Assembly (NCBI GenBank): GCA_964539015.1
Contig: CAZIHD010000002.1
Span: 1-48,331, forward strand
From: an uncultured Gammaproteobacteria bacterium
GTDB taxonomy: Bacteria; Patescibacteriota; Patescibacteriia; Patescibacteriales; UBA12465
Direction: 5' to 3'
DNA: 48,331 nucleotides
Made by a program: the position numbers and the translations under genes. Of this stretch, positions 5,671 through 38,824 are shown piece by piece (the stretch's first letter is position 1; each line of letters opens with the position of its first letter). The notes beneath the pieces were generated by a model. It made no database searches. It was not told the DNA's origin and worked only from the letters and a program-made list of their open reading frames with translations.

Positions 5671-5678
5671 ATTTAGTG

Positions 5679-20763: not shown

Positions 20764-20783
20764 TCTATATTTTTTACTTATTT

Positions 20784-20811
20784 AAAAAAGGCGCTTTTAA
20801 GCGCCTTTTTT
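20784..20811. terminator. Bidirectional terminator between convergent genes
   Basis: aaaaaaggcgc-ttttaa-gcgcctttttt. Confidence 0.75.
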
Positions 20812-20830
20812 AAATAAAACATTTTAGTTT

Positions 20831-22303
20831 TTATTGTACCACCTCAACTTTAATCCGGTCAGCCAGACTGGGGGCACGATTGATAAAGCTTGGAGAAAAC
20901 TTTAATTCATAAGTTTCTATTTCCGGAAAAGTATGCAAGTATTCGGAAATCTGCGCCTGTTTTAGATTGACCAGTTTCCGCCGATCAACGATATCGGCAT
21001 CGGTGCGTAAAGACATACTGCTCTTAAAATCAGCGATTACGGTCGCGGTCTTCGCCGACACGTCAAAAGTTTCCAAACGATAATTTACCGCCTGGCTGTC
21101 AAAAGCGGAGAGTTCTTTGTCATCAGGCAAAAGAAAAGCTAATTTTGCTTTAACCAGCGCTTCCGCCTGTTTTTTGGAAAAAGAAGCAATGGTAATATTA
21201 TTTTCTGCAGATACTGTAAATTCCGCTTTTTCTTCTCCGACTTTGGCGCCGAGCTTGACGGTGGCGGCATCATCATCCAAAGAATAAGCAAAAGCTTTAG
21301 AATCGTCGCTCTTTCGTTCGGCCAAAAGATTATCTGCTTTCACGGCTAAAGTCTGTTTAATATCGCTAGTCGCCTGATCAAGATCGCTTTGTTTAACATA
21401 ATGCTTGACCTGATGGCGATATTCAAAAGCATCTTCGCTGGTCGCATAAATCTGATTCTGCAGGCCAAGCCAAAGGCCGGGAATAGTAAAACGAGTCGGG
21501 GCGATCGCCATCGCTTCCGTCGGCTGGTCGGCATACACTTCGGCTTTAACGGTGCCGCCGGCCGGAACATTAACCGCTTCTTTAAGGCGGAATAATTTAT
21601 TATCTTGGCTTAATAAGCGGGTTTTCGCCACTAAGGGCTGATCTTTAATATATTCGTTATGCAAAGTAACTTCTCCGGCCACTTCTTCGCCTAAAATTTC
21701 TTCACCGCTGGCTTCATAAACTTTTTCCGCGCTCACCGGAACTGTTTGAATGTCACCGGCTAAGAAACGCCCGCTCGTCGTGCTCACGGCCGATTGACCA
21801 TTGTCGGTCGGGGCGATATTAATGGTCAGGCTATCGGCAATCGCTTCCGCGCTAGGATGTAAAGTGATTTTTAAACTGGGCAGAAAAAAATAAGCGACGA
21901 CAAGGAATAAAAGAATAGTCAGTCCGACGAATTGGAAAGCAATCCGGCGGTATAGATTCAAAGATTTATGCGATTTAACTGTTTTATCTTCCGGGACGGT
22001 TGGTAATTTTCCGGTTAAAGAAAAATCGGCCTTCTTATCCTTCATTTCGGCCACGAGGTCGGAATAAAATTTCTGCCGGACATCCAAGCTCGCCCGCTCT
22101 TCGGCGTTGTCTTCGGGCAGGCCGCCGCCGGTCGGATTTTGAAAAAGCACCTCTTCATCATCAGCGATGACATCAACCGTAATCGGCCTGGCTTTCGGCC
22201 AAGGCTTATTTTTCTTTTCAATCTTTTCTGCTTTGTCCGCTTTTTTAACGCGCGGTTTTTTTACAGCCGTTTTTTTAACTGGCTCTTTTTTAAGTTTAGG
22301 CAT
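20831..22303 (-). CDS. Hypothetical Lys-rich, single-TM protein
   Basis: The ATG at 22303 is preceded by GGAGG (22318-22314) at 10-nt spacing. The ORF track's longer start at 22324 is TTG. No family was recognised. Confidence 0.55.
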   Translation of the reverse strand: MPKLKKEPVKKTAVKKPRVKKADKAEKIEKKNKPWPKARPITVDVIADDEEVLFQNPTGGGLPEDNAEERASLDVRQKFYSDLVAEMKDKKADFSLTGKLPTVPEDKTVKSHKSLNLYRRIAFQFVGLTILLFLVVAYFFLPSLKITLHPSAEAIADSLTINIAPTDNGQSAVSTTSGRFLAGDIQTVPVSAEKVYEASGEEILGEEVAGEVTLHNEYIKDQPLVAKTRLLSQDNKLFRLKEAVNVPAGGTVKAEVYADQPTEAMAIAPTRFTIPGLWLGLQNQIYATSEDAFEYRHQVKHYVKQSDLDQATSDIKQTLAVKADNLLAERKSDDSKAFAYSLDDDAATVKLGAKVGEEKAEFTVSAENNITIASFSKKQAEALVKAKLAFLLPDDKELSAFDSQAVNYRLETFDVSAKTATVIADFKSSMSLRTDADIVDRRKLVNLKQAQISEYLHTFPEIETYELKFSPSFINRAPSLADRIKVEVVQ

Positions 22304-22382
22304 AAGCTTGTTTCCTCCGGACAAGCCGGATATATAAAGAAGAATAATATCGCCTCCGATGAAGAGCGACTTGATCTTTTTT

Positions 22383-22391
22383 ATTATATCA
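22383..22391 (-). promoter_or_regulatory. Extended -10 TGATATAAT
   Basis: This is the reverse complement of attatatca, between the dnaE stop and the next gene. Confidence 0.4.
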
Positions 22392-22411
22392 GATTTTTAT
22401 CCGCCTCACAA

Positions 22412-25400
22412 TTATTTTTTATCTTCCGGCTCGACTACCTGCACTGAATCAGCCAATTCTAAGCGTAAACGGGCACGCAGATCCGAGCAATTATCAACTA
22501 AGAAAGCGGTTTTTAAAACATGGTCTTCCCTGCCTGCCGGCACGCGCAGATAAACCGGGTTGGAGCCGGGATAAGTTCTGAGAATGCTTTTTAAAATTGC
22601 CTGCTGTTCTGGACTGGGCGGACGCCGAAAAGCTAAGCGTAAAGACGGCTCCGAGATTATAACTTTTTTTTCTATTACCGGCGGTGTGAATTTAACCGGC
22701 GTCTTGGCTGGCGCCTTGGCGTAAGCCGTTGGCCGCGACCAAGTTTCGCCGCCGTTCTGAGCATGCCGCCAGCGATTATTTTCTTTATTGGCTAAAAGTG
22801 TTCGTTTAAAATTATCCAGAGATTCCTGGGGATTATCCGGCTGGAGCGGTCCGGCTTGATCAACTAAAATTTTTAAATCAGCATCTTTTTCCGATAAGCG
22901 GCCGCGGGCAATGACCAAACAGCCGTCTTTCCATAACTCTAAAGTATTTTTTAATAGCCCCGGAAAAACTAATAATTCCACGCTTCCACCCTTATCTTCA
23001 ATCTTAACAAAAAGCATTGATTCGCCCTTGCGGGTGATTATTTTTTTCAGGCTGGTGATAACGCCGGCCACCACGACATAATCATCGCCGCGATGCTGGC
23101 CGAGCCGCATTAAAGGAATACAAAAATCTTTCAAATAAGCGCTGAACATGGAGAGAGGGTTGTCGCTGATATAAAGGCCGAGCAATTCTTTTTCCCAAGA
23201 TAATTTTTCAATCGGAGCCGCCGGATCGGCCGGTGTCAATTGCGGCCGCGAGAGATTACTGAAACCGGAAGCATCGCTGAAAAGGCTGGCCTGACGGCTT
23301 TCCTGCTGCTTGGAAATTTCTTTGTTAAAAAGCAAGAACCTCTCCAAATTCGCCAAAAGCTGGCCGCGTTCGCCAAAGCTATCCAAAGCGCCGCTCTTCA
23401 TCAAGCTTTCCAGTGATTTCTTATTCAAATCTTTGTCATTTACTCTTTCCAGCAAATCAAAAATATCAGCATACGGTCCGTTCTGCTTGCGTTCCGCAAT
23501 AATGACTTCCACAATATGTTCGCCCAGATTTTTAATCGCGTTCAGCCCGAAGCGGATTGTGTCCACTTTCTCGCCGGCGGCGGCGATGCGATTTTCCTTA
23601 GTGCCGGCTGTAACGACGGTGAAAGAATCAAAAGATTCATTAAGATCCGGCGCCATCACCTTTAAGCCCATGCTCCGGCATTCTTCAATTTCAATCGCTA
23701 CCCGATCGCTATCATGCTGATCGGAGGTCAACAGAGCCGCCATGAACTCTACCGGCCAATGCGCCTTCAGATAAGCCGTCTGGTAGCCAATTAAGGCATA
23801 GCAGGCGGCGTGGCTGCGATTGAAGCCGTAACCGGCGAATGGTTCGATAAAAGAAAAAACTTTTTCTGCCAATTCTTTATAAATTCCATTTTTTACACAG
23901 CCGTCAATAAACTTCTCTTTCTGTTCAGCCAGTAAAGCGGCGATCTTTTTACCCATGGCTTTGCGCAAGACATCGGCTTGCCCGGGCGTAAAACCGGCGA
24001 GAGCGCGGGAAATCTGCATCACTTGTTCTTGATAGATGGCAACACCGTAGGTGCGCGCTAAAATCGGCTCCAGCTTTGGATGAAGGTAAACAACTTTTTT
24101 TGTTCCGTGCTTGCCGGCAATATAATCAGGAATCCACTCCATCGGCCCGGGGCGATAAAGAGCGACCATAGCGATAATATCTTCAAATTCATTCGGCTTA
24201 AGTTCGCGCAGATAACGCTTCATACCCGAAGATTCAAACTGAAAAACGCCGGTCGTTTCCCCTTGCTGGAATAAACGATAAGCGGCGGCATCATCTAAGG
24301 GCAGGTTATCAATATTTATTTCCAGCCCGCGCGTCTTCTTGATGATGCGCAAAGCTGATTCAATAATTGTTAAATTTTTCAAACCGAGAAAATCCATCTT
24401 TAAGAGTCCGAGATCTTCGACCGGATGCAAAGAATACTGGGAAATAATACTCTTATCGGACGAAGAAGCGTATTGGATCGGCACATATTCAGTTAAAGGC
24501 TTCGGCGTAATCAGAACACCGCAGGCATGCGTGGAAGAATGGCGGGCGACGCCCTCCAGGCGTTTGGCATAATCCAAAATCCGTTTCGCTTCCGGCTCGT
24601 TCTGATACATTTCCTTTACTTCCGGCACTTCTTTCAGAGCTTCGTCTAAAGAGGTGAACATCGGAATGCTTTTGGAAAGCCGATCGCAAAAATCATAAGG
24701 AATGCCGAGGACGCGGCCGACATCGCGGATTGCCGCTCGAGCCGCCATGGTACCGAAGGTAATAATCTGAGCAACATGATCTTGGCCGTATTTTTGACCG
24801 ACATAATCAAGCACATCGCCGCGGCGGATATCGGCGAAGTCCATATCGATATCCGGCATGGAAATACGATCCGGATTAAGAAAACGTTCAAACAGCAAAT
24901 CATACTGCAAAGGATCAAGATTGGTGATTCCGGTAAGGTAGCAGATCAAAGAACCGGCGGCGCTGCCGCGGCCCGGACCAACAACAATCTTATTGTCTTT
25001 AGCCCAATTAACAAAATCGGAAACGATTAAAAAATAAGAAGGCCAACCCATCTTCGTCACCACGCTAAGCTCATAATTCAAACGCTCTAAAATTTTTTCT
25101 TTGACCAAGCCTTGAGGCAAATCTTTATAGCCGGCAGACAGCTGATAATCATCGCCTGATTTTACTAAACCGTATTTTTTTTCCAAGCCGAGTTCGCAAA
25201 GATGGCGGAGATAAGTATTACCATCATAGCCTTCGGGCACCTCGAAATAAGGCAATTGAATTTCTCCAAGCGGAATTTCCAAATTGCACATCTCGGCAAT
25301 TTTAACAGTATTAGTGATTGCTTCCGGCACGTGGGCGAAAACGCGCTCCATTTCGGCGGCTGGACGCATGGAATAATCACCCTTGCCCATCATCCGCATC

Positions 25401-26101
25401 CGATCAACATCATCGACTTTCTTTTTATTCTGCAGACAAAGTAAAATATCCTGAGCTTCCGCATCTTCGGGTTTAAAATAATGAACATCGTTTGTTGCGA
25501 CCAGCGGCACCCCTAATTCTTTGGAAAAAGCGATTAATTGATTATTAATCTTATCCTGGCCTTCAAGTTCAGGATGATCCATTATTTCCAGATAATAATG
25601 ATCGGGACCGAAAAGTTCGCTATATTCCAAAATCCGCTTTTTTGCTTTATCTAGTTCACCATTTAAAATCAGCTGCGAAATCTCGCCGCCCAGGCAAGCG
25701 CTGGAAGCGATAATGCCTTCGTGATATTGAGTCAATAATTCCCAATCAAGGCGCGGTTTATAATAAAAACCCTCCAGGTGCGCGGCAGATACCAGCTTAA
25801 TCAGATTTTTATAACCGGTATTATTCTCGGCCAGCAGAAGTAAATGATAGCTGCGGCCGTCGGCGCGCGTATGCTTGTCAAAACGCGAGGCCGGCGCCAA
25901 ATAAGCTTCAACGCCGATAATCGGCTTTACCCCCGCTTTCTTGCATTTTTGATAAAATTCAATAACGCCATAAAGCACGCCGTGGTCGGTAATTGCCACC
26001 GCGTTCGAGCCTTCTTCTTTGGCTCGGTTAATCAGCTCGTCCAGCTTAGTCAGGCCGTCAAGCAAAGAATAATGAGTATGGTTGTGGAGATGGACAAACA
26101 T
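22412..26101 (-). CDS. dnaE: DNA polymerase III alpha subunit
   Basis: PHP domain HLHNHTHYSLLDG, polymerase core and OB fold. The ATG at 26101 is preferred because the candidate -10 at 26118-26126 lies inside the longer ORF, which reaches 26155. Confidence 0.95.
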   Translation of the reverse strand: MFVHLHNHTHYSLLDGLTKLDELINRAKEEGSNAVAITDHGVLYGVIEFYQKCKKAGVKPIIGVEAYLAPASRFDKHTRADGRSYHLLLLAENNTGYKNLIKLVSAAHLEGFYYKPRLDWELLTQYHEGIIASSACLGGEISQLILNGELDKAKKRILEYSELFGPDHYYLEIMDHPELEGQDKINNQLIAFSKELGVPLVATNDVHYFKPEDAEAQDILLCLQNKKKVDDVDRMRMMGKGDYSMRPAAEMERVFAHVPEAITNTVKIAEMCNLEIPLGEIQLPYFEVPEGYDGNTYLRHLCELGLEKKYGLVKSGDDYQLSAGYKDLPQGLVKEKILERLNYELSVVTKMGWPSYFLIVSDFVNWAKDNKIVVGPGRGSAAGSLICYLTGITNLDPLQYDLLFERFLNPDRISMPDIDMDFADIRRGDVLDYVGQKYGQDHVAQIITFGTMAARAAIRDVGRVLGIPYDFCDRLSKSIPMFTSLDEALKEVPEVKEMYQNEPEAKRILDYAKRLEGVARHSSTHACGVLITPKPLTEYVPIQYASSSDKSIISQYSLHPVEDLGLLKMDFLGLKNLTIIESALRIIKKTRGLEINIDNLPLDDAAAYRLFQQGETTGVFQFESSGMKRYLRELKPNEFEDIIAMVALYRPGPMEWIPDYIAGKHGTKKVVYLHPKLEPILARTYGVAIYQEQVMQISRALAGFTPGQADVLRKAMGKKIAALLAEQKEKFIDGCVKNGIYKELAEKVFSFIEPFAGYGFNRSHAACYALIGYQTAYLKAHWPVEFMAALLTSDQHDSDRVAIEIEECRSMGLKVMAPDLNESFDSFTVVTAGTKENRIAAAGEKVDTIRFGLNAIKNLGEHIVEVIIAERKQNGPYADIFDLLERVNDKDLNKKSLESLMKSGALDSFGERGQLLANLERFLLFNKEISKQQESRQASLFSDASGFSNLSRPQLTPADPAAPIEKLSWEKELLGLYISDNPLSMFSAYLKDFCIPLMRLGQHRGDDYVVVAGVITSLKKIITRKGESMLFVKIEDKGGSVELLVFPGLLKNTLELWKDGCLVIARGRLSEKDADLKILVDQAGPLQPDNPQESLDNFKRTLLANKENNRWRHAQNGGETWSRPTAYAKAPAKTPVKFTPPVIEKKVIISEPSLRLAFRRPPSPEQQAILKSILRTYPGSNPVYLRVPAGREDHVLKTAFLVDNCSDLRARLRLELADSVQVVEPEDKK

Positions 26102-26117
26102 ATATGATCTTAAATTG

Positions 26118-26126
26118 ACTATATCA
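26118..26126 (-). promoter_or_regulatory. Extended -10-like TGATATAGT upstream of dnaE
   Basis: This is the reverse complement of actatatca, 16 nt upstream of the ATG at 26101. Confidence 0.35.
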
Positions 26127-26228
26127 ATTTTAGCACCGCTCGACAATCTTGCCAAAGGATCGTAATTTTGTCTGAAACAGACAAAAAAAGAGGCTTAAAC
26201 CTCCTTTTCCGTATCTAAAAAATCACTA

Positions 26229-27107
26229 TTATTCTTCAATTTTTTCCAAAATATTGCCTAGCTCTTCTTCGCTATAAAAATCTAAAACGACGCGGCCGCC
26301 CCGGCCGGCGCGGATAATTTTAGCCTTAGTGCCGAAGAAGGAGCGCAATTTTTCTTCTTTGGCTTGATCGGCATAATTAATAATTACCCGAGCTGCTTTG
26401 GTGCCACCCAAACGCCTAGTTTCTTCCTGAGTTTGAGCCACGGACAGATTCTGATTGAGAATTTTTTTAAATAAAATTGCTTGCTGAGCGGGATTAGCAA
26501 TACCAAGCAGATATTTGGCGTGCGCCTCCGTAATACGGCCGGCGCTAAGAGCTTCCTGAATTTCTATCGGCAAATCCAAAAGACGCAAAGTATTGGCCAA
26601 GCTAGAGCGAGCTTTCCCTACTTTCTGTGCCGTTTCTTCCTGAGTAAGGTCAAATTCATCCATTAAACGGCGATAGGCGCGAGCCGTTTCTACCGGATCT
26701 AAATCTTGGCGCTGTAAATTTTCAATCAAAGCCAATTCTAATTTTTTCTGTTCGCTTGCCTCCCGAATCAAAGCCGGAACCGTTTTTAAACCTAAGGCTT
26801 TAGCGCTCCGCCAGCGGCGTTCGCCGGCAATCAATTCATAAGCATCGCCCTGGCGAGTGACAACGAGCGGCTGGAGGATGCCATGCTCTTTTATCGAATC
26901 CATTAATTCCCGCAAAGAAACTTCGCTGAAATTATGGCGCGGCTGATAAGGATTCATCACGATCTCATCCGGATTAATATGAAACACCCGGTCAGAATCG
27001 GCGATCACAATTTGCGGCAGCACTTCCGCCCCGCTATTGGTATTATCGGCATTGAAAGTTTTTTTGGGAATCAAGGAGCCTAAGCCCCGGCCTAAAGCTT
27101 GCGACAT
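26229..27107 (-). CDS. parB: Chromosome partitioning protein ParB
   Basis: Motifs present: GRGLGSLIP and GERRWRSAKALGL. The ATG at 27107 is preferred to the TTG at 27173. Confidence 0.9.
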   Translation of the reverse strand: MSQALGRGLGSLIPKKTFNADNTNSGAEVLPQIVIADSDRVFHINPDEIVMNPYQPRHNFSEVSLRELMDSIKEHGILQPLVVTRQGDAYELIAGERRWRSAKALGLKTVPALIREASEQKKLELALIENLQRQDLDPVETARAYRRLMDEFDLTQEETAQKVGKARSSLANTLRLLDLPIEIQEALSAGRITEAHAKYLLGIANPAQQAILFKKILNQNLSVAQTQEETRRLGGTKAARVIINYADQAKEEKLRSFFGTKAKIIRAGRGGRVVLDFYSEEELGNILEKIEE

Positions 27108-27173
27108 ATATTTTTTAGCTAAGATATTTTTTGATTGATAGTGGCGATTAAAACGTCTTTTAGAGCCATACAA

Positions 27174-27935
27174 TTATTCTAAAGCAATAACTTCCTGAGC
27201 TAAACTTTCATAAGCTTTGGCGCCGCTTGATTTGGGATCGTAATGGAGGATACTGCGGCCATAACTTGGAGCTTCGGCGAGCTTGACCCCGCGCGGAATA
27301 ATCGATTCAAAAATCTTGCCCGGAAAAAATTTATGCAGTTCTTCCAAAACCGCTCCGGACAATTTATTGCGCCGATCAAACATCGTTACCACCGCCCCCA
27401 TAATATTTAAGGACGGCTTCAAATTATCCTGCACTAATTTTACGGTTTCCAATAATTGTCCCAAACCTTCTAAGGCATAATATTCACTCTGGATCGGGAT
27501 TAAGACCGAGTCGGCCGCCACCAAACTATTCACCGTTAATAAACCAAGCGAAGGCGGGCCGTCCACGATGATATAATCATATTCTTTCCGTAACTCTTCC
27601 AATAATAAAGCCAGACGGAATTCACGGTTTTCCAAAGAAACCATCTCAATTCCGGCGCCAGCCAAAGAAACGGTGGCGGGAGCCACGCTATAATGGGGCT
27701 GAATCGTTCGTTTAATCACGGAATAAAGGGGCTTTTGCCCAAGTAAAGCCTCATAAATACCGGCTTCCAGTTTCTGGTGTTCAATACCAAGCCCGGAAGT
27801 GGCGTTAGCCTGCGGATCAAGGTCAACTAACAAAACCTCCTTGCCGGCAGCGGCCAAATAAGCGCCTAAATTGACGGCGGTTGTAGTTTTTCCCACTCCG
27901 CCTTTTTGATTAACAACGGCAATAATCTTTCCCAT
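27174..27935 (-). CDS. parA: Chromosome partitioning ATPase ParA/Soj
   Basis: It has the deviant Walker A motif KGGVGKTTTAVNL. Confidence 0.93.
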   Translation of the reverse strand: MGKIIAVVNQKGGVGKTTTAVNLGAYLAAAGKEVLLVDLDPQANATSGLGIEHQKLEAGIYEALLGQKPLYSVIKRTIQPHYSVAPATVSLAGAGIEMVSLENREFRLALLLEELRKEYDYIIVDGPPSLGLLTVNSLVAADSVLIPIQSEYYALEGLGQLLETVKLVQDNLKPSLNIMGAVVTMFDRRNKLSGAVLEELHKFFPGKIFESIIPRGVKLAEAPSYGRSILHYDPKSSGAKAYESLAQEVIALE

Positions 27936-28015
27936 ATAAGAAAAACGGCAATCTTAGTAAAAAATGGATAAAATTTAAATTCAAGACAAATTTATTATAT
28001 ATTAAATAAATGCCT

Positions 28016-28044
28016 TTGACAATTGATTCTATATTTATTATACT
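28016..28044 (+). promoter_or_regulatory. tRNA-Leu promoter
   Basis: -35 TTGACA (28016-28021), a 17-nt spacer, then -10 TATACT (28039-28044). It lies about 20 nt upstream of the tRNA. Confidence 0.6.
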
Positions 28045-28063
28045 AAATTTCGTAATTAATATG

Positions 28064-28147
28064 GCCGCGGTGGCGGAACTGGTAGACGCGCACGACTCAA
28101 ACTCGTGTGGGGGCGACTCCGTGAGGGTTCGATTCCCTCTCGCGGCA
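28064..28147 (+). tRNA. tRNA-Leu (anticodon CAA), type II with long variable arm
   Basis: Manual fold: acceptor GCCGCGG/TCGCGGC, anticodon stem CACGA/TCGTG with loop CTCAAAC, and T arm GAGGG-TTCGATT-CCCTC. The discriminator is A. Confidence 0.9.
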
Positions 28148-28220
28148 CAATAAAAGACTCCGAAAGGAGTCTTTTCTGTTAGTGCCAAGAGAGCGAGCCA
28201 CTAATGTGGCTCGCGTAGGG
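28131..28220 (+). repeat. Direct repeat copy A (tRNA-Leu 3' end + terminator + second hairpin)
   Basis: This 90-nt copy matches 28323-28413 apart from 2 substitutions and 1 extra T. Confidence 0.9.
28152..28175 (+). terminator. tRNA-Leu terminator hairpin (GAAA tetraloop)
   Basis: aaaagactcc-gaaa-ggagtctttt. An identical copy lies at 28344-28367. Confidence 0.7.
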
Positions 28221-28322
28221 AATCGAAAGCCGGAGCGATGTGCCGAAGGCACCGCGAGGCCGGGTCGGGGCGCTTGCTTTTCACTGAGTGAAACGAGAGT
28301 GAAAAGCTTAGCGACCGTGACC

Positions 28323-28413
28323 GATTCCCTCTCGCGGCACAATAAAAGACTCCGAAAGGAGTCTTTTTCTGTTAGTGCCAAGAGAGCGAGTCACTAATGT
28401 GGCTCGCTTAGGG
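28323..28413 (+). repeat. Direct repeat copy B (orphan tRNA-Leu 3' end)
   Basis: This 91-nt copy starts at gattccctctcgcggca. Weaker homology to the tRNA variable arm (gcgac-cgtga) lies just upstream. Confidence 0.9.
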
Positions 28414-28653
28414 TTTACCTATTTCTATGATTTCCATAGTTTGTATCTATTTAATTTATCAAGTATACAAAGTATACGAGTTTGTATATATCAAACCAAG
28501 AAACGTATACAAACTTTCGATTCAGAAAACAAAATTTAATTTTTTAAACATGATTTAATGTTAGCAAATTTACCACTTTTTCAGCTACAATAACATCACA
28601 ATTTTTTGTTTCGCTGGTAATACAAGAGGAAGTAATGAAATAAAGATTCAAAT

Positions 28654-29913
28654 TTATAACAATGATACCTGCTCTTTAAAAAAATTTGGCTCAACTAGCG
28701 TAGCCTTCTCCATTGTCTTGGGATCAAATTTTTTATTTAACATCCCAATAATACAACGACCAATGTGATACGCGAGATTTGTAGGAACGGCATTTCCAAT
28801 TTGTTTATATTGTGAACAAGTTGAACCGGAAAAATTCCAATCGTCCGGAAAAGTTTGTATTCTGGCGTATTCTCTAACCTTAAGAGGTCTGGTCTCTTCT
28901 GGGTGGCATCTTTCGGTTTGTTTCTGCGCCGGAGCACAAGTTAAGGTTAAACTAGGCTCATCCCATGACAACCTTCTTGCCATTCCGGTTTTTCCACCAC
29001 CCATATAAAAACTAGACATCATATATTCTTTTTGTAATTCTAACGGAAGGTCTCTCCAATAACCACCTGGCGGAACTAATTTTAAAATCTCTTTCTTTCT
29101 CTTAGGATATTCTTGACCAATCGAATCGGGACAATTTTCTAAAGCCTCACGTATTGAAATTGTATAATCTTTTTCTTTCGGGAAAAAGATCGGCAAATTC
29201 AAATCCTTTCTAACCGCTAAGATAATTAATCTCTCTCTTTTCTGCGGAACATCAAAATACTGAGCCCTAAGAACTTTAAAGGCAACATTATAGCCTAACT
29301 CAATTAAAACATTAAGAATTACTTTAAGAGTTTTGCCATTATCATGTTTTAAAAGCCCTCTTACATTTTCGCCCATTACTACTTTTGGCCTTACTTCCTT
29401 TACACAACGAGCCAATTCAAAAAACATTGTTCCTCTTACGTCTTCAAAGCCTAATTTTTTACCGGCAAAACTAAAAGTTTGGCACGGAAACCCTCCCTCA
29501 ACAACATCCGCTTTTATTCCTTTAAAATTTATCTCCCTGATATCTCCTTGAATAACATTCCATTTTGGTCGATTAGTTTTTAGAGTTTCAACAGCGTTTT
29601 TATCCCAATCCGTTAAAAGCGTATGTTTCAATCCGGCATTATCAAAGCCGATTGCGGTTCCACCCGCTCCAGCAAATAACTCAATTACTTTATAATTTGT
29701 TTTTTTAGCATTCTTCAATATTTTATAATTATTACCAACATGTTTGCCAGAAATTTTATTTTGGACTCTTATTAACTCATTCATATCGAAAAGACGATAG
29801 TTTAATTCCGATCGCTTGGCTTTAATCAAACCCTTCTTTTCCCATCTTCTTATTGTATCCGGCGACAAAGTTAATGTTTCTGCCGCTTCAAGAACCGTTG
29901 AATATGTATTCAT
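28654..29913 (-). CDS. DNA (cytosine-5)-methyltransferase with N-terminal MerR-like HTH
   Basis: m5C motifs are present: ELFAGAGG (I), GFPCQTFS (IV), ENV (VI), QKRERL (VIII) and GNAVP (X). The N-terminal HTH reads LSPDTIRRWEKKGLIKAKRSELNYRLF. Confidence 0.9.
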   Translation of the reverse strand: MNTYSTVLEAAETLTLSPDTIRRWEKKGLIKAKRSELNYRLFDMNELIRVQNKISGKHVGNNYKILKNAKKTNYKVIELFAGAGGTAIGFDNAGLKHTLLTDWDKNAVETLKTNRPKWNVIQGDIREINFKGIKADVVEGGFPCQTFSFAGKKLGFEDVRGTMFFELARCVKEVRPKVVMGENVRGLLKHDNGKTLKVILNVLIELGYNVAFKVLRAQYFDVPQKRERLIILAVRKDLNLPIFFPKEKDYTISIREALENCPDSIGQEYPKRKKEILKLVPPGGYWRDLPLELQKEYMMSSFYMGGGKTGMARRLSWDEPSLTLTCAPAQKQTERCHPEETRPLKVREYARIQTFPDDWNFSGSTCSQYKQIGNAVPTNLAYHIGRCIIGMLNKKFDPKTMEKATLVEPNFFKEQVSLL

Positions 29914-29938
29914 ATAAACTAATAAAAATTATGTTTTA

Positions 29939-29947
29939 ATTATAACA
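29939..29947 (-). promoter_or_regulatory. Extended -10 TGTTATAAT for the methyltransferase
   Basis: This is the reverse complement of attataaca, 25 nt upstream of the ATG at 29913. It abuts the palindrome. Confidence 0.5.
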
Positions 29948-29975
29948 ATAACCCTTGCATTATGCAAGGGTTATT
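29947..29975. promoter_or_regulatory. 29-bp perfect palindrome (candidate operator and/or R-gene terminator)
   Basis: aataacccttgcat-t-atgcaagggttatt has 14-bp arms. Confidence 0.6.
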
Positions 29976-30009
29976 AAATTATCTAATTTTATTGGTTTTT
30001 ATCTCTCTA

Positions 30010-30735
30010 CTAATCCTTATAAGCCTTGCTAAAAAGTTCTTTAAAAAATTTATCTTTAATTAAATATTTATGGTTCTTATTCAAAATTATTCCTATTACC
30101 GTTGGTAAAACATTATAAAGCATTCTGAGCGCATTTTTTTCTCCGGTTGCGTAAAAATAAAAACTATTACCATCAATTCTTCTTATTTTTTCAATTCCCT
30201 TTCGTCGTGTCTTAGTTTTATTATCCGACGGCGAAAATATATCATTATATTCTTTCTTATTTTGAGGAATAATTTCAACATAGTAGGCCGTATATCCTTT
30301 ATATTTATTTTTTAACTGCGACTCCAAATCATCATAGATAGCCACCTTATGATTTCCCTTGGTTGTGTTAAATTTATTTTTAACCTCAGCAATTATTTTT
30401 TTATTTTTATTAAGCAAATCAAATACGTGCCCCTTCCCCATATCTTCCCATCCATTGACACAACCCAATATTTTCTGGTGAAATTCGCCAATAGCATTCT
30501 GCATGGTTTTTTGTATCTGTCTTGAACCCTCTTGTTTAATCCATTGATTTAAAGATATATCTTGTATGAGAGCATCGAAAATTGCAGAAAATGGATCAAT
30601 CGCATTTTTATATAAATTCTTGTCACACATATTCACGGCGACCTGTGCTGAGATAATAACTTCCTCAACCTTATTAAACAAATCTTGATTGCTTATGTAC
30701 GGCAATAATTGTTTTGACGGTATTTTGTATGGCAT
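30010..30735 (-). CDS. Type II restriction endonuclease (possibly Eco47II-like)
   Basis: It is adjacent to, and co-oriented with, the m5C MTase. A PD-(D/E)xK-like signature is present: VFDLL...IIAEVKNK. The family name comes from memory only. Confidence 0.55.
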   Translation of the reverse strand: MPYKIPSKQLLPYISNQDLFNKVEEVIISAQVAVNMCDKNLYKNAIDPFSAIFDALIQDISLNQWIKQEGSRQIQKTMQNAIGEFHQKILGCVNGWEDMGKGHVFDLLNKNKKIIAEVKNKFNTTKGNHKVAIYDDLESQLKNKYKGYTAYYVEIIPQNKKEYNDIFSPSDNKTKTRRKGIEKIRRIDGNSFYFYATGEKNALRMLYNVLPTVIGIILNKNHKYLIKDKFFKELFSKAYKD

Positions 30736-30781
30736 GTTGTTTGCGGCTAATTGAATTAGATTTTAACTCTTACAAAAAAAA

Positions 30782-30790
30782 ATTATAGCA
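30782..30790 (-). promoter_or_regulatory. Extended -10 TGCTATAAT (restriction gene)
   Basis: This is the reverse complement of attatagca, 46 nt upstream of the ATG at 30735. Confidence 0.45.
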
Positions 30791-30879
30791 CAAAAAAAGT
30801 ATTCATAAAATCAAAATAAATTCATATAGATAGAAAATATTAATACCCTCATCACCCATTTATTAAATATAGCGTCGGA

Positions 30880-30924
30880 AAAATTAACTATTTAATCCCT
30901 TCAAAAATGTTTGGCAGGGGGCAC
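30880..30924. repeat. Copy B of the 45-bp interspersed repeat
   Basis: See copy A at 3-47. It lies 9 nt beyond the Fic stop codon. Confidence 0.85.
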
Positions 30925-30932
30925 TATAATAA

Positions 30933-32033
30933 TTATTTTCTAATTATTTTACGCAAATCAGAAAACCCGTAAATCTTATTACGTGCGTTATCTGGCGTCA
31001 AATCTTTAATAATATTTAGTTCCACAAATTTTTCGATTACCGAATATAAAGTCTGGTTATTAGAAATACCGGAAATACTCTTAATCGACCGAGCCATAAA
31101 AGTCGATTTTGTAAAAATTGAGTCCAAAAATGAATTAGCATATATCGAGCCGACCTTTGGCATTATTTCTTTAAGAGATTTATAGAGTTTTTCAATTTTT
31201 TCAACCCGATCAAGTGTAATCTTTGTTTGTTCGTAGATAGCGTCCAAAAAGAAGCTTATCCATGGTAACCAGGCTCCTTTTTCACTGACATCTCGCAATA
31301 ATTCATAATAAACGTTTCTGTGTTCTTCTAAATATTCACTGATATATATATTAGGATAAGATGTAACTTTATTTTCATACAAAAATAGTGGAACAAGCAG
31401 CCTGCCCACGCGGCCATTTCCATCCATAAAAGGATGAATAGCCTCAAACTGATAATGAGCCACAGCGATTTGGATAAGAGGATCCAGCACATCCTTAGTA
31501 TTAATATACTTCTCTAAATTAGAAAACAAACCGGGTATATGTTGCGGCTCCGGCGGAATAAACGTCGCTTGCTCAATAGTGGCGCCATAAGACCCGATGT
31601 AGACTTGATTCTTTCGAAATTCACCAGGATTTTTATTTTTACCACGGACAGAACTTAAAAGTATTTTATGTAAGTCTTTGACTACATTTTCGGCAATCGG
31701 CCTCTTTTCTAAAAATTCTTTTCCTTTTCTTATCGCTAAGCGATAATTAAAAATCTCTTGATAATCTTTTTCACTTTCGTTTTCTTCTGTTTTTGTATCT
31801 TTGGCGTCAAAAAGCAAGACCTCATCTAAAGTAGCCTGAGTTCCTTCAATTTTTGAACTTAAAACGGCCTCCTTTGTGGCAAAAGAGCGTTGAATAATAT
31901 CTGGATTTGGCAACCTTTTAACCGCCTCATCATAACGAGCAACAATATCTCTTGCTCTGATTATCTTGGTAAAAACAGAAGAATATTCTAATTTAGGCGG
32001 TAAAAACGGAGGAATAAATGACTTTTTTGGCAT
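30933..32033 (-). CDS. Fic family protein (canonical AMPylase-type motif)
   Basis: It has HPFMDGNGRVGR, an N-terminal Fic_N-like region and the inhibitory motif SSKIEGT. Confidence 0.9.
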   Translation of the reverse strand: MPKKSFIPPFLPPKLEYSSVFTKIIRARDIVARYDEAVKRLPNPDIIQRSFATKEAVLSSKIEGTQATLDEVLLFDAKDTKTEENESEKDYQEIFNYRLAIRKGKEFLEKRPIAENVVKDLHKILLSSVRGKNKNPGEFRKNQVYIGSYGATIEQATFIPPEPQHIPGLFSNLEKYINTKDVLDPLIQIAVAHYQFEAIHPFMDGNGRVGRLLVPLFLYENKVTSYPNIYISEYLEEHRNVYYELLRDVSEKGAWLPWISFFLDAIYEQTKITLDRVEKIEKLYKSLKEIMPKVGSIYANSFLDSIFTKSTFMARSIKSISGISNNQTLYSVIEKFVELNIIKDLTPDNARNKIYGFSDLRKIIRK

Positions 32034-32060
32034 ATATTTAGCTTAATTCTAATTAATAGA

Positions 32061-32069
32061 ATTATAGCA
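32061..32069 (-). promoter_or_regulatory. Extended -10 TGCTATAAT (Fic)
   Basis: This is the reverse complement of attatagca, 27 nt upstream of the ATG at 32033. Confidence 0.5.
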
Positions 32070-32328
32070 AATCTTATTCTAGTTTTCAAGTATTTACTGG
32101 AATAAGGCTTTTGTGTATTCCAAACGCTGGAATAAGGGATGTTATTATTCTACTTTATAAGGTTAATTAGAATAATTTAAGAAGATGTATACAAACTACT
32201 TTTATAATTTAAATTAATATATTATTCTATTCCATGAAGCATTTTTGAATACGAATCTTCAATATTCTGATATTTTAAATTATCAAAAATCAAATATCAC
32301 CAAACAACAAGTCTGATTCCAATACCCT

Positions 32329-32682
32329 CTATTTTACTTTCTGAAATCTGACGGTAAAAAGAGGTTCGTATTCAACCTGATTTTCATCAATTACCTTCAC
32401 TTCCTCTCCTTTTGTTAATTGCGTTAAAGCAATATCGCTCAACATCTGCTTATCGCCGGCGATATTCAGCTTTAAGCCTTCCAACTTGTCAAATTCTTCT
32501 TTTAAATCCGCTTTGACGCCCGTCTCAATCTGTTTCTTCTTTGTTTTTAAAGCTTCTAATTCTTCTAAAACTTCATGGTAATTGCCATTGACGGCCAAGG
32601 CGTCGCGATACATCTTTTTCAGATCGCGCTGAGTTCGCTGCTGTTCCTGCAAGCGCTTAAAAACTTCATTGAGTTGGGACAT
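32329..32682 (-). CDS. Hypothetical coiled-coil protein (117 aa)
   Basis: It is a charged heptad-like sequence with its own TGCTATAAT box. No family was recognised. Confidence 0.5.
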   Translation of the reverse strand: MSQLNEVFKRLQEQQRTQRDLKKMYRDALAVNGNYHEVLEELEALKTKKKQIETGVKADLKEEFDKLEGLKLNIAGDKQMLSDIALTQLTKGEEVKVIDENQVEYEPLFTVRFQKVK

Positions 32683-32714
32683 AAAGAAAAAAATTAAGAA
32701 TAAAGATAATCAAG

Positions 32715-32723
32715 ATTATAGCA
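32715..32723 (-). promoter_or_regulatory. Extended -10 TGCTATAAT
   Basis: This is the reverse complement of attatagca, 32 nt upstream of the ATG at 32682. Confidence 0.5.
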
Positions 32724-32740
32724 CGAACAAAATTAAAAAT

Positions 32741-32766
32741 AAAAAGAGCTTTAAAAGCCCTTTTTT
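32741..32766 (-). terminator. Terminator-like hairpin after mnmA
   Basis: aaagagc-tttaaaa-gcccttt has one mismatch and a flanking T-run. Confidence 0.4.
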
Positions 32767-32785
32767 ATTCAGTAAATTAAAAAAA

Positions 32786-33877
32786 TCAAGCAATGACGCC
32801 GCCGCCTAAAATTCGATTTCCCTGATAAAAAACCGCGCTCTGGCCGGGAGTAACCGCTCGTGTCGGCTGACGCAAGCTTACTTTTAATTCACCGCGGCGC
32901 TTCCCTGCTTCCACTAAACAAGAAACCGCGGGATGGCCGTAACGAATCACGACTTGACAGTGTAAAGGCAGGCGCGGGGCTTTTTTATCCAGCCAATTAA
33001 TTTTTTCCAAGATAAATTCGCGGCGATACAAAACTTGATCGTTCCAGGTTCTAACCACCCAGAGGGTATTGCTCGAATAATCGCTGGCGGCCACATAATA
33101 AGGGCCGGTGCCGCCGATTTCAATGCCCCGGCGCTGGCCGGGGGTATAAAGAGGCAAGCCTTGATGTTCGCCGATAACCAAGCCGTCTTCCCGGCGCTTA
33201 ATCGGCCCTGGTTTTAATTTTAAATATCGCTTTAAAAAATTATTATGCGGTCCGGACAGGAAACAAATATCCTGGCTTTCCGCTTTTGAAGCCGTAGGTA
33301 AGCCGAATTTCGCGGCTAAAGCGCGAACCTGCGGCTTTGTATAATTACCTAAGGGAAAATAGAAATGTTTTAATTCGGCTTGGCTGAAAGTATATAAAAA
33401 ATAAGATTGATCTTTATTCCGGTCTTTGGCGCGATAGACGCGCGCTTCGCCATCCTTGTCTAAACGCTTTAAATAATGGCCGCTGGCCACGCCGTCATAG
33501 CCTAACGCTCGGGCGTGCTTTAAGAGCAAGCCGAGTTTAATCTGCTTATTGCAGACGACGCAGGGATTCGGTGTCCGTCCGGACGCATACTCGGCTAAAA
33601 AATAATCAACAACGGCTTTTTTAAATTCCCGCGCAAAATTTAAAGAAAAAATCGGAATGCCGATCTTCGCCGCCACCGCCTTGGCATCCAAAAAAGATTC
33701 CAAGGAACAACACTTATTTTCCATTTTCTCCGGCGCTCGGTCATCTTTCCAAAAATGTAAAAAGACCCCCGTAACTTCATGCCCCTGGTCTTTCAATAAT
33801 CGTGCCGCTACCGACGAATCAACGCCGCCGGACATGGCCACTAAAATTTTCAATTTTTTCTTTTTAATCTGCCGCAT
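32786..33877 (-). CDS. mnmA: tRNA-specific 2-thiouridylase MnmA
   Basis: It has the PP-loop MSGGVDSSVAA plus the conserved Cys residues and C-terminal barrel region. Confidence 0.93.
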   Translation of the reverse strand: MRQIKKKKLKILVAMSGGVDSSVAARLLKDQGHEVTGVFLHFWKDDRAPEKMENKCCSLESFLDAKAVAAKIGIPIFSLNFAREFKKAVVDYFLAEYASGRTPNPCVVCNKQIKLGLLLKHARALGYDGVASGHYLKRLDKDGEARVYRAKDRNKDQSYFLYTFSQAELKHFYFPLGNYTKPQVRALAAKFGLPTASKAESQDICFLSGPHNNFLKRYLKLKPGPIKRREDGLVIGEHQGLPLYTPGQRRGIEIGGTGPYYVAASDYSSNTLWVVRTWNDQVLYRREFILEKINWLDKKAPRLPLHCQVVIRYGHPAVSCLVEAGKRRGELKVSLRQPTRAVTPGQSAVFYQGNRILGGGVIA

Positions 33878-33895
33878 ATGACCGTAATATAATCA

Positions 33896-34333
33896 TCACA
33901 GGTCGATAATAATCGTGGTCGGACCGTCATTCACCAGACTGATTTTCATGTGTTCACCAAAAGCGCCGACTACAACTTCCAGGCCGAAAGTACGCAAATT
34001 TTCCGCGACCTGATTAAATAAAAGCAAGGCCTGTTCTGGCCGGGCGGAATCAACAAAACTCGGACGATTTCCTCGAGAACAGTCGCCATAAAGGGTAAAT
34101 TGTGAAACGAGAAGAATACTTAATTTTAAATCAAGCAAAGACAAATTCATCTTCCCTTCCGTGTCTTGTAAAATCCGTAAATGAGCAATTTTTTCCGCCA
34201 TCTTTTGCGCCTGAATTTCACTATCGCCGACCTTAACGGCCAGCAATATTAAAAAACCGGCCGGGATGCGGCTGATTTCTCGATCATTAACGCTGACGGC
34301 GGCTTGGCTGACAACCTGGATAATGGCGCGCAT
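33896..34333 (-). CDS. dtd: D-aminoacyl-tRNA deacylase
   Basis: Motifs present: MRAIIQVV, SQFTLYGD and GNRPSF. It is 145 aa. Confidence 0.9.
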   Translation of the reverse strand: MRAIIQVVSQAAVSVNDREISRIPAGFLILLAVKVGDSEIQAQKMAEKIAHLRILQDTEGKMNLSLLDLKLSILLVSQFTLYGDCSRGNRPSFVDSARPEQALLLFNQVAENLRTFGLEVVVGAFGEHMKISLVNDGPTTIIIDL

Positions 34334-34336
34334 ATT

Positions 34337-35479
34337 TTATAAACTCTTAAATAATTCTAAATATTGCTTGGCGGTCTCTTCCCAAGAAAATTTTTGTGCT
34401 TGTTCCTTACCGGCCGCCATCAGGCGCGCCTTTAACTCGGGATTGGTAATAACTAGCTCCAAGGCTTTAGCAATCTCATTAATATCATAGGGATTGATGG
34501 TCAAGGCGGCGGCGCCGACCACTTCCGGCAAAGAAGAAACATTACTGGTAATCACCGGCAAGCGGCGAGCCATCGCTTCCAGAGGCGGCAAACCGAAACC
34601 TTCATAATAAGAAGGATAAACAAAGACTTCTGCTCGCTGGTAAAGCAATTCTTTTTCACGGGCGGAAAGATAGCCGACAAATTTGATATCGCGGCGATAA
34701 GGGGAATCTTCCCAAGCATGATAAATGCTGCGATTTTTCCAGCCGTCCGCTCCGGCCAGAACTAATTGCAAATCAACAAGATTGACATTATCATCTCGAA
34801 AACGATTATAAGCATAAATCAAACCGGTAATATTTTTGCGCGGCTCAATCGTGCCCAGATAAAGAATAAAGCGCTTCTTTAATTCGTGGCGGCGGAAAAA
34901 AAGCCGCTCTTCTTCCGGACCGGGCAAAGGTACGGCCGGCATTAAACCGGAATAAATTGTCTTGACCTTCGCTTCCGGAACATGCAAAAGTTCAATTATG
35001 TCCTGGCGCGTATTTTCCGAAACAGCAATTATAGCCGCGCAATCAGCAGTCAATCTTTTTAAATCTAAGGCCCGATGCCAGAAATTCTTCCGGCGGCTGA
35101 AAAATTCTGGATAATGGAGAAAGGAAATATCATGGATGGTCAGGACATGTTTGGTTTTTGAAGAAAAATGGCTGAAATTTATATGCGGCGACCAAAAAAC
35201 ATCAGCACCGCCGATTAATTGATCAAGCTTCGGCCAGGCTAAGCCTTTCTGTAAAAAATAATTAAAAAAACGATTTGGATAAGCCGTCCGTTTGATATTT
35301 AGATGCGGATGTTCAAAATTACCGATCCGCGCCCGGACATCATGAAAAGAATTATAAAAAAGACGATATTCATCATCCTTGTCTAGGCGCAAGAGCGTGC
35401 GCAATAAGACGGAGGTGTATTCGGAAACACCGCTGTATTGTTTATCCATTAAAACCCGGATATCGACGCCGATCTTCAT
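34337..35479 (-). CDS. Glycosyltransferase family 4
   Basis: It has a GT-B fold with [27 protein letters not shown]. Confidence 0.85.
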
Positions 35480-35487
35480 AAAAAAAT

Positions 35488-36624: not shown

Positions 36625-36638
36625 AAAATAATTAAAAA

Positions 36639-38054: not shown

Positions 38055-38111
38055 ATTTATATCAAGCTTAAATCAAGATAATCAATAATTTAAGTTCTAA
38101 AATAAAGTTAA

Positions 38112-38472
38112 GAGGGCAAGCGATAAGCCGGATTCTGTCGTGAGCGGCCATTTATCTAGCCTGGCTGTCGCCAGCCAGGTCAAGCGAGCTACTTTTTACC
38201 AAATAAGCGCTTGCGCGCCCATCCGGCTTTGCTCTTGCTTCAGGCAGGGTTTACCGCGGACACGCCGTTACCGGCGGCCGAAGCCTGTAGCCCCGAAGAA
38301 CACCAGGCGACTTTTCACCTTTCTCCGCCCGAGAGCGGATAGTATTGTCTCTGTGGCACTTTCCCTAAGATTGCTCTTGGCGGACGTTATCCGCTGCCCT
38401 TTTTTGTGAAGTCCGGACTTTCCTCTCCTTGGCGTCAAATAACGCAAAAGAGCGGCCGCTTACTTGCCCCGA
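38112..38472 (-). ncRNA. rnpB: RNase P RNA, bacterial type A
   Basis: The minus strand contains GAGGAAAGUCCGGAC (P4 5'), ACAGAAUCCGGCUUAUCG (P4 3') and GGUAAACCCUGCCUGAAGCAAG. P1 pairs GGGCAAG (38469-38463) with CUUGCCC (38120-38114). The ends are approximate. Confidence 0.9.
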
Positions 38473-38483
38473 TTAACCCTTTT

Positions 38484-38512
38484 ATCGTACAAGAAAAGTC
38501 GGAAAAAATCAA
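38484..38512 (-). promoter_or_regulatory. Candidate rnpB promoter
   Basis: On the minus strand: TTGATT (38512-38507), a 17-nt spacer, then TACGAT (38489-38484). It lies about 12 nt upstream of P1. Confidence 0.4.
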
Positions 38513-38546
38513 ATTAAAAAGATATCATCCCCTTTTTAATCTAATC

Positions 38547-38573
38547 TTGACAAAATATTAATAATGTTATAAA
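38547..38573 (+). promoter_or_regulatory. Candidate promoter of the small ORF
   Basis: TTGACA (38547-38552), then TG-T-TATAAA (38565-38573). The spacer is 15 nt. Confidence 0.4.
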
Positions 38574-38597
38574 AAGATAATACCAAAACCGTTCCTT

Positions 38598-38765: not shown

Positions 38766-38770
38766 AAAAA

Positions 38771-38792: not shown

Positions 38793-38824
38793 TTTTTCAT
38801 ATCTTTTTATTTTTTCTCCTTCTT

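Follow-up and report, generated by a model that had tools for sequence, protein, structure and literature searches.

The window analyzed here, a stretch of 48,331 nucleotides that opens contig CAZIHD010000002.1 of an uncultured patescibacterial genome (GCA_964539015.1), carries a tRNA-Leu(CAA) gene whose 3′ end is duplicated about 100 bp further downstream. The duplication comprises one complete unit (28130-28321, 192 nt) followed by another that breaks off after 92 nt; both belong to a family of dispersed, highly structured, protein-less cassettes that reside at tRNA 3′ ends. The 101-nt spacer between the repeats is the core of this dispersed element, neither junk nor a deletion remnant. Duplicated tRNA tails are routinely taken as integrase scars and used to delimit genomic islands, and the original prediction for this locus had accordingly proposed a classical integrase footprint; the conserved core bracketed by the repeats contradicts this. 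The best explanation overall, to which we give slightly better than an even chance, is that the window holds 1.5 units of a family of tRNA-tail cassettes that spreads without an enzyme of its own through host recombination. The genome to which the window belongs (760 kb in 59 contigs) is denoted G000; other G numbers refer to other genomes, C numbers to contigs and L numbers to loci.

Duplication of the tRNA-Leu tail

Alignment of positions 28130-28220 (copy A) with 28322-28413 (copy B) confirmed the predicted direct repeat of about 90 bp, the copies differing by two substitutions and one additional T. Identity is 100% over the first 46 nt (28130-28175 and 28322-28367) and 96% over a stretch of 49 nt (28172-28220 and 28365-28413); the start-to-start spacing is 192 for the former and 193 for the latter, accounting for the single added T. 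The 19-mer forming the tRNA tail, CGATTCCCTCTCGCGGCAC, occurs exactly twice in the window, against a chance expectation of 0.01. Copy A had been said to complete the functional tRNA (28131-28220), and indeed tRNA-Leu(CAA) ends at 28148 with its tail inside this copy. The substitutions exchange C at 28198 for T at 28391 and G at 28215 for T at 28408. The former falls within a 9-bp hairpin (GCGAGCCAC/GTGGCTCGC), in which a C-G pair becomes U-G on the + strand only. The claim that pairing is kept as G-U only in plus-strand RNA is thus correct, and it agrees with the evidence for a + strand fold across the family (see below).

The duplication is genuine. In DNA run X1 (sequencing-run evidence, from DNA runs X1 and X2 and from RNA libraries, refers to Logan contigs and unitigs throughout), exact unitigs at the depth of the flanks cover both junction types, one spanning 28146-28252, from the copy A trailer into the core, and the other 28338-28500, from the copy B trailer into the low-GC island that follows. 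The second hairpin is likewise joined to the island in a ~94% strain in X2, and a 41-kb contig from the Joint Genome Institute (JGI), possibly from the same sample, is 99.99% identical with both copies included. A repeat mis-joined or expanded during assembly is scarcely credible: contigs of G000 do break at other copies of the element, but the variants separating the two copies are real and present in the reads, and the same join recurs in the second strain and in the JGI contig.

A decayed trace of the tRNA variable arm (gcgac-cgtga) had been reported just upstream of copy B. This sequence is instead the conserved 3′ end of the core and the invariant 3′ end of helix C. Cassettes at Pro, Ala, Gln and Ser tRNAs carry it too, class I tRNAs included. 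When the core was aligned locally with tRNA positions 1-55, the score stayed within chance, 211 of 500 shuffles scoring as high.

A dispersed cassette behind tRNA genes

A BLAST search with the 101-nt spacer retrieved it from 11 of 61 relatives. Within G000, the element is found at four to five tRNA genes: besides the window, related spacers lie after tRNA-Leu(TAA) on C20 (86% match, continuing on C12), after tRNA-Pro(GGG) on C44 and after tRNA-Pro(TGG) on C28, where only a remnant is left. Contig ends fall at three of these other sites, the contigs breaking within the element. Only 27 tRNAs were recovered in G000, several of them also at contig ends.

A covariance model of the cassette core (R1), built from 15 copies and run over 301 genomes from 96 genera of the order, detected the element in 72 genomes and 23 genera, with 1-10 copies per genome and at least 12 tRNA types. 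The window copy matches this model with 136.7 bits (E 6e-36), the core sequence GGCCGGGTCGGGGCGCTT ... AGCGACCGTGAC and the three-way-junction fold both being present. It also has the layout of the family, since it stands directly behind its tRNA, with an antisense T segment before the core and a sense tail from C56 after it. In a pattern scan of genome contigs, for which the pattern was short and GC-rich, matches were mostly due to chance in high-GC genomes; metagenome-assembled genomes of Patescibacteria, Parcubacteria and Falkowbacteria were also among them.

Among the families of Rfam 15, only the tRNA itself matches, and 28176-28345 has no match even at E values up to 10. The core was not found in the viral, phage and plasmid collections IMG/VR (pattern scan), INPHARED and PLSDB, and a phage or plasmid origin, considered as a candidate, was rejected on these grounds. 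Full-text literature searches turned up no account of such cassettes, and the family is apparently undescribed.

Architecture and conserved fold

On the tRNA strand, the parts of each copy follow one another as tRNA, trailer hairpin, antisense tail, AAA, helix B, helix C and sense tail, the last running from C56 to the 3′ end. The unit is thus composed of a 19-nt tail from T-loop position C56, the trailer hairpin, the antisense tail, often split by a hairpin, and a three-way-junction core of ~95 nt that terminates in GTGAC. The fold of the unit is closed by the tail copy that comes next, which base-pairs with the antisense segment. The segment antisense to the T-stem 3′ strand and T-loop measures 11-15 nt. 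An antisense acceptor segment and a conserved hairpin between the antisense segments are present in many copies, not in all. At each of the 24 loci where an upstream tRNA was detected, C56 is the first position of the sense copy, the targets being Ser (GCT, GGA, TGA), Leu (CAA, TAA), Ala (TGC, GGC), Pro (GGG, TGG), Gln, Asn and Cys tRNAs. The repeat is 19-23 nt long at most loci, with duplications ranging overall from 11 to 120 nt.

In the window, all of these parts lie on the + strand. The last 19 nt (28130-28148, from T-loop C56) of tRNA-Leu(CAA) (28064-28148; CCA not encoded) are the tRNA part of copy A. The unit 1 trailer (28149-28181) contains the hairpin GACTCC-GAAA-GGAGTC (28156-28171). 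It is followed by the anti-acceptor segment GTGCCAAGAG (28182-28191), which, apart from two mismatches, is the reverse complement of the acceptor 3′ strand and occupies the same place at other loci, and by hairpin 2, GCGAGCCAC-TAAT-GTGGCTCGC (28193-28214), the conserved element hairpin that separates both antisense segments. The anti-T segment AGGGAATCGAA (28217-28227), the reverse complement of the T-loop and T-stem 3′ strand of this very tRNA, pairs with copy B to form helix A. The conserved core (28228-28321) comprises helix B, made up of GCC/GGC, a tandem G.A and a variable hairpin, and helix C, GGTCGGGGCGCT/AGCGACCGTGACC, on which the variable module-2 hairpin forms the cap; GTGAC ends the core. 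The tRNA part of copy B (28322-28340, tRNA position 56 to the 3′ end) both closes the fold of unit 1 and opens unit 2, the remainder of which (28341-28413) includes a trailer hairpin with 5 T, an anti-acceptor segment, hairpin 2′ with the U-G pair resulting from the C-to-T change, and TTAGGG, and is cut off inside the anti-T segment.

The fold is strongly conserved. Over 40 copies, 98.6% of the cells form standard pairs, compensatory changes on both sides occur in 18 of the 30 pairs and one G.U pair is invariant. None of 500 shuffles reached the observed values, and slid controls paired at only 30-41%. The minimum free energy of the + strand of 28176-28345 is -90.4 kcal/mol (z -8.1), the predicted fold being exactly the inferred structure, compared to -81.9 kcal/mol for the - strand. 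The G.A and G.U features are meaningful solely on the tRNA strand, and the tandem G.A motif is suggestive of a protein-binding site.

The pairing between the antisense segment and the tail copy, henceforth referred to as the clamp, adheres to the local tail. Copies behind tRNA-Leu(CAA) and tRNA-Leu(TAA) differ at exactly the tRNA-specific positions. Moreover, the antisense segments of L069 and L079 are complementary to their own distal tail copy and not to the upstream tRNA, and the tail copy of L064 retains the T part only, suggesting that the clamp helix itself is under selection. At L079 (in G284, behind tRNA-Gln(CTG)), the antisense segment and the tail copy (CGAATCCCGCCTTCGGAGCC) match each other and not that tRNA; this may reflect a non-cognate copy or a rearrangement of the locus through recombination between cores. 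At L082 (G106), the tRNA-Leu(CAA) gene in front of the cassette has an extra palindromic segment (ctgcctgcgtaccgcaggtaggcagg) in the region of the anticodon arm, possibly an intron or an insertion.

Transcription

The only sigma-70-like promoter on the + strand that is placed to drive both tRNA and cassette is the tRNA promoter TTGACA-17-TATACT (28016-28044). Because the hairpin in the unit 1 trailer is followed by only 4 T and the scan calls no terminator there, read-through into the cassette is likely. The unit would thus be transcribed from the tRNA promoter as a + strand RNA, with selection keeping clamp and core folded.

Exact contigs spanning 28236-28480 are present in wastewater 'RNA-Seq' libraries from two samples, whereas these libraries leave the flanking genes uncovered, along with nearly the whole of 20001-40000, the RNase P RNA included. 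The contigs continue beyond copy B and its two hairpins (the trailer hairpin and hairpin 2′) and end about 70 nt inside the island, and the coverage past 28413 stems either from cassette read-through or from an unmapped transcript, on either strand, at the left edge of the island. A related cassette copy is present in a true metatranscriptome. Since the contigs are unstranded and low in depth, the evidence for expression is weak.

Empty sites and tandem units

Throughout the genus (16 genomes), the ParA/tRNA-Leu(CAA) locus is conserved. At the empty sites of G009, G005, G015, G010 and G011, the tRNA is followed by one terminator hairpin, ~30-50 nt and a homologue of the native 117-aa gene at 32329-32682 (- strand). 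This gene stands directly after the tRNA-Leu(CAA) terminator in relatives and marks the far side of the insertion. Relative to the sister species, two insertions are therefore present, namely the cassette at 28149-28413 and the island that follows it (28414 to about 32320), in line with the prediction that the repeats mark an insertion at the tRNA tail. At L032 (G002), an open reading frame (ORF) with a LAGLIDADG-type motif (..VIGVAIGDGNLS..) is located right after tRNA-Leu(CAA), placing a homing-endonuclease-like gene at the cassette site of G000.

Insertion of a single unit is illustrated by the spacer between tRNA-Leu(TAA) and tRNA-Gly(GCC), which is empty in G002 and filled in G006. The difference amounts to exactly one unit of ~190 nt, consisting of ~170 nt and a 19(+4)-nt tail repeat, and the native trailer of G006 stands after the distal tail copy. 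Single-unit insertion thus leaves the native trailer behind the distal tail copy.

Tandem units occur as well. G267 carries 2.3 perfect units of 182 nt behind tRNA-Ala(GGC), G241 and G123 also have pairs with a spacing of ~181-183 nt, and wider-spaced pairs (~350-400 nt) are found in G283, G147, G137 and G216. Such units lengthen the repeat, hence the 90 nt in the window, which holds 1.5 units. The trailer hairpin resembles the native terminators of relatives, which is consistent with local tandem duplication of a unit already inserted, followed by its truncation. In the window, the unit would have been duplicated in tandem, after which arrival of the island or an adjacent deletion would have cut unit 2 at 28413. 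Judging by the ends of C20 and C12, tRNA-Leu(TAA) may likewise be followed by an additional partial unit.

The comparison with related genomes that had been proposed as a check thus yielded empty sites, single units and tandem units. The suggested tandem attachment-site array fits a locus with one full unit and 92 nt of a second one, all the more as perfect tandem units exist in other genomes. The alternative suggestion of serial integration and deletion holds only in part: serial insertions at one tRNA do occur in relatives, but the bracketed 101 nt is a conserved core and no deletion remnant.

The adjoining low-GC island

As had been noted originally, the low-GC island lies outside the repeats and begins right after copy B, unit 2 ending at 28413 and the island starting at 28414. 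The island (28414-32320, GC 0.30-0.35) is missing at the empty sites of relatives, and no recombinase was found in it. It encodes a helix-turn-helix/5-methylcytosine (HTH-m5C) methyltransferase (28654-29913), an Eco47II-like endonuclease (30010-30735) and a Fic protein (30933-32033), all on the - strand. Its right edge (32311-32330, + strand), GTCTGATTCCAATACCCTCT, is a weak echo of the core end and the tRNA tail (..GTGACCGATTCCCTCT) that may be due to chance. The Eco47II-like endonuclease turned up in a single further genome among 148 of the family, where neither a tRNA nor a cassette is nearby, and the possibility that the island travels with the cassette was rejected for this reason.

Of 25 loci, 11 have low-GC DNA on the distal side of the cassette and none has it on the proximal side. 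In relatives, moreover, two different cassette families are found serially behind one tRNA, with the most diverged tail copy farthest from the tRNA. tRNA tails are thus stacking sites.

A second low-GC island occupies 1-5600 of the window. Both islands have a Fic-family gene (at 4361-5407 in the second one), neither contains a recombinase, and they share a 45-nt repeat (3-47 and 30880-30924, 40 of 45 positions identical). Downstream of tRNA-Gln(CTG) (5678-5749), at 5560-5680 on the - strand, an inverted copy of the tRNA-Gln tail (CAGGACGGACTCGAACC) follows the terminator, and the second island lies ~20 nt beyond. This feature may be a truncated cassette remnant beside an island, parallel to the tRNA-Leu case.

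Spread of the cassettes

Within a genome, core modules have been homogenized across copies at different tRNAs. In module 1, the copies at tRNA-Pro(GGG) and tRNA-Leu(TAA) share 98% identity in G003 and 94% in G006, as compared to 73-88% between orthologues from different genomes. Module 2 of the tRNA-Leu(TAA) copy of G000 is 94% like that of the tRNA-Leu(CAA) copy of the same genome and only 37% like its G003 orthologue. Since identity within genomes exceeds that between orthologues, the cores seem to undergo gene conversion while the antisense segments stay locus-specific.

Profiles of four enzyme families across the 16 genomes of the genus revealed no partner tracking the element. All 16 genomes have one Xer-like tyrosine recombinase, which is the sole one in G000 (C4:20130-20666), G006, G010 and G015. 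As regards tyrosine recombinases, the genome search that had been proposed to find a dedicated integrase therefore led only to this common gene. Reverse transcriptase (PF00078) is represented by three genes in G000 (C1:24707-25315, C29:1155-1790 and C39:3758-4444) and by none in G006, G015 and G003. Large serine recombinases, three in G000, are lacking in G015 and G011 and numerous in the element-free G004 and G007. Y1 transposases (PF01797) are lacking in G000, G003, G006 and G015. Likewise, clustering of the ORFs within 1.5 kb on either side of 38 copies returned only syntenic housekeeping genes, with no recurring recombinase and no reverse transcriptase. On C27 of G000, the ORF of a 512-aa large serine recombinase (1224-2762, + strand) runs into the 3′ end of tRNA-Ser(GGA) (2726-2813, - strand); this looks like another insertion at a tRNA tail, with its own recombinase, and that tail has no second copy in the genome. 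At L015/L226 (G011 C2:42186-43835), a degenerate cassette lies ~1.2 kb from a Y1 (IS200/IS605-type) transposase gene, the sole case of such proximity; this transposase family is missing from other element-positive genomes.

With no enzyme tracking the element, no recurring neighbor gene and no match to the core in viral, phage or plasmid collections, host homologous recombination is favored. The family would need no dedicated enzyme to persist and spread: after DNA uptake, host recombination would act on two homology arms, the conserved tRNA gene at one end and, at the other, the 19-nt tail repeat. Tandem units would be gained or lost when tail repeats cross over unequally, and gene conversion between cores would yield the mosaic pattern.

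Several points weigh against this reading. A right-hand homology arm of 19 nt is short for RecA-type recombination, and the fixed position-56 junction in every copy is also what a site-specific T-loop crossover is expected to produce. Recombination alone leaves the fit between the antisense clamp and each new tRNA unexplained, a shortcoming that it shares with the trans-recombinase model discussed below. The enzyme profiles span only 16 genomes and four families, so that they would miss an enzyme that a phage or plasmid provides only transiently. The RNA libraries are labelled 'METAGENOMIC RNA-Seq', besides yielding contigs of low depth and without strand, and the fold could equally be used as single-stranded DNA. 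For the window itself, either arrival of the island or a deletion may account for the cut at 28413, and the events may have occurred in either order.

The main rival to host recombination is a T-loop recombinase acting in trans. The cassette would then be a miniature non-autonomous integrative element, forming a unit-length circle with the tRNA tail as attP, which would be integrated at T-loop position 55/56, the candidate recombinases being the host Xer, a phage integrase and a large serine recombinase. Tandem arrays would arise from successive integrations, which would also displace older inserts such as the island distally. Much of what is described above is in line with this model: the invariant C56 junction, the clean one-unit insertion with its 19(+4)-nt direct repeat, perfect tandem units, serial insertion of two cassette families at one tRNA with the most diverged tail farthest away, low-GC DNA in a distal and never in the reverse position, and three large serine recombinases in G000, one with an ORF entering the tRNA-Ser(GGA) 3′ end. 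However, no recombinase family tracks the element. G015 has five copies yet only the universal Xer-like gene, with neither a serine recombinase nor a Y1 transposase, and G006 lacks an extra tyrosine recombinase. Moreover, no recombinase gene recurs within 1.5 kb of the 38 copies, the core is missing from the viral, phage and plasmid collections searched, and the need for an antisense clamp is left unexplained. We consider such an element possible but doubtful. Less credible by far is the original interpretation of the repeats as attL/attR remains of serially integrated integrase islands, afterwards deleted almost wholly to 102 nt. The 101 nt form a conserved, covarying structure shared by at least 12 tRNA types and 72 genomes, and independent deletions would not leave the same sequence. 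Although the repeat begins in the T-loop as in known tRNA-integrating islands, and the island adjoins a site that is empty in relatives, this island has no integrase and lies outside the repeats, and the sole tyrosine recombinase is universal in the genus.

A retroelement-type insertion, in which RNA is reverse transcribed from a T-loop nick or a tRNA-like 3′ end as primer, is very unlikely too. It would combine a fixed 3′ junction with duplications of variable length (11 to 120 nt), the antisense tail copy resembles a primer-binding site and G000 has three reverse transcriptase genes; yet the element-positive G006, G015 and G003 have none, and tandem units already account for the long duplications. 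A 36-nt 'truncated' copy behind tRNA-Pro(TGG) on C28, a candidate product of target-primed reverse transcription, is better read as a deletion between two 14-mers, because GAGTGAAACGAG(A/G)AG is found alike in the native Pro tRNA trailer of this group and in the module-2 loop. A vertically inherited functional RNA gene, for instance an immobile regulator or processing module matched to the tRNA tail and made patchy by repeated loss, appears improbable. In this case, strong covariation, signs of expression, orthologous copies at the Leu-TAA/Gly-GCC and Pro-GGG loci across species, and clamps that stay complementary to a tail copy diverged from the tRNA (L069, L079) have to be set against at least 12 different tRNA targets, copy numbers of 0 to 10 among close relatives and the non-cognate clamp behind tRNA-Gln in L079. 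In addition, the Leu-CAA copy of G000 is absent from the genus genomes whose site was read, and neither BLAST nor the covariance model found a core at the Leu-CAA site in other genomes of the genus.

Comparison with known systems

Genomic islands and prophages that integrate at the tRNA T-loop share with the cassettes a direct repeat (attL/attR) starting in the T-loop, an intact tRNA, empty sites in sister genomes and stacked inserts. In contrast, the cassette insert is only ~170 nt long, non-coding and conserved across many tRNA types, it brings an additional antisense tail, and no integrase is found in, near or tracking it. The repeats of the REP/REPIN, BOX, ERIC and Correia types, which are similar to miniature inverted-repeat transposable elements (MITEs), are likewise short, GC-rich, hairpin-forming, intergenic, multi-copy, patchy and co-transcribed with their neighbors, but they have neither a tie to tRNA tails nor target-matched arms. 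REPINs, moreover, need the RAYT (Y1) transposase, whereas the cassette-positive G000, G003, G006 and G015 lack PF01797. A MITE would have element-specific terminal inverted repeats, a short target-site duplication of fixed length and an autonomous partner encoding the transposase; the cassette has inverted arms that derive from the local tRNA tail instead of being specific to the element, its repeat measures at least 19 nt, and no autonomous partner was found. With retrons the cassettes share flanking inverted repeats, but no reverse transcriptase lies within 1.5 kb of the 38 copies, and three genomes with cassettes (G006, G015, G003) have none.

In integron attC sites and the folded single-stranded attP of CTX phage, an imperfect inverted repeat similarly folds a single strand into a duplex that copies the chromosomal target, and arm structure is conserved above sequence. 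The cassettes differ in having no IntI and in a core that is itself highly conserved and displays RNA-type features, namely the invariant G.U and the tandem G.A. The proposed mode of spread resembles that of Neisseria minimal mobile elements, which have no enzyme of their own and show clean boundaries within conserved flanks; in the case of the cassettes, one flank is just the 19-nt tail repeat, the insert is non-coding and structured, and transformation is only proposed. Plant mitochondrial t-elements, mascRNA and tmRNA-type domains also form a helix like that of the acceptor and T-stem from distant 5′ and 3′ segments, in or next to a tRNA transcript. In the cassette, unlike in these tRNA-like modules, the T-loop is replaced by an extended helix and the core, so that the elbow read by tRNA enzymes is missing.

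In the reduced genomes of Patescibacteria, many tail repeats bracket a conserved, folded, gene-less cassette and not an integrase island; island callers will therefore set boundaries wrongly, and assemblies break at these sites. The cassettes represent a compact, abundant and covarying RNA or single-stranded DNA fold tied to tRNA genes in a major uncultured lineage. They offer a natural case of arms that match whichever tRNA they stand behind, and a test of whether small cassettes can spread through host recombination and tRNA conservation alone.

More tentatively, the cassettes and the sister family described below may constitute a new class of tRNA-matched, protein-less modules, in which the clamp is a programmable address that chooses the T-arm of one tRNA, either for insertion or for acting on the tRNA. 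The folded RNA or single-stranded DNA may use its anti-T and anti-acceptor segments for this purpose, retargeting being achieved by rewriting the clamp around a constant hairpin and core; actions on the tRNA may include processing, protection or decoy. If the clamp were indeed an addressing device, it would embody a new principle for targeting tRNA genes or tRNAs.

A sister cassette family

A second family (GGGGATTCGAA-CAAGCGGCGAGCGAGAC...), which has a different core, was encountered alongside the first. Its members consist of an antisense T segment followed by CAAGCGGCGAGCGAGAC..., ~150 nt and ...GGCGGAA, with a tail copy starting at about position 58-59. Sites are located behind tRNA-Asn in G000 (C51:2340-2488, at a contig end) and at L069, L083 and L076. 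In relatives, this sister family is found in series with family 1 behind tRNA-Ser or tRNA-Ala.

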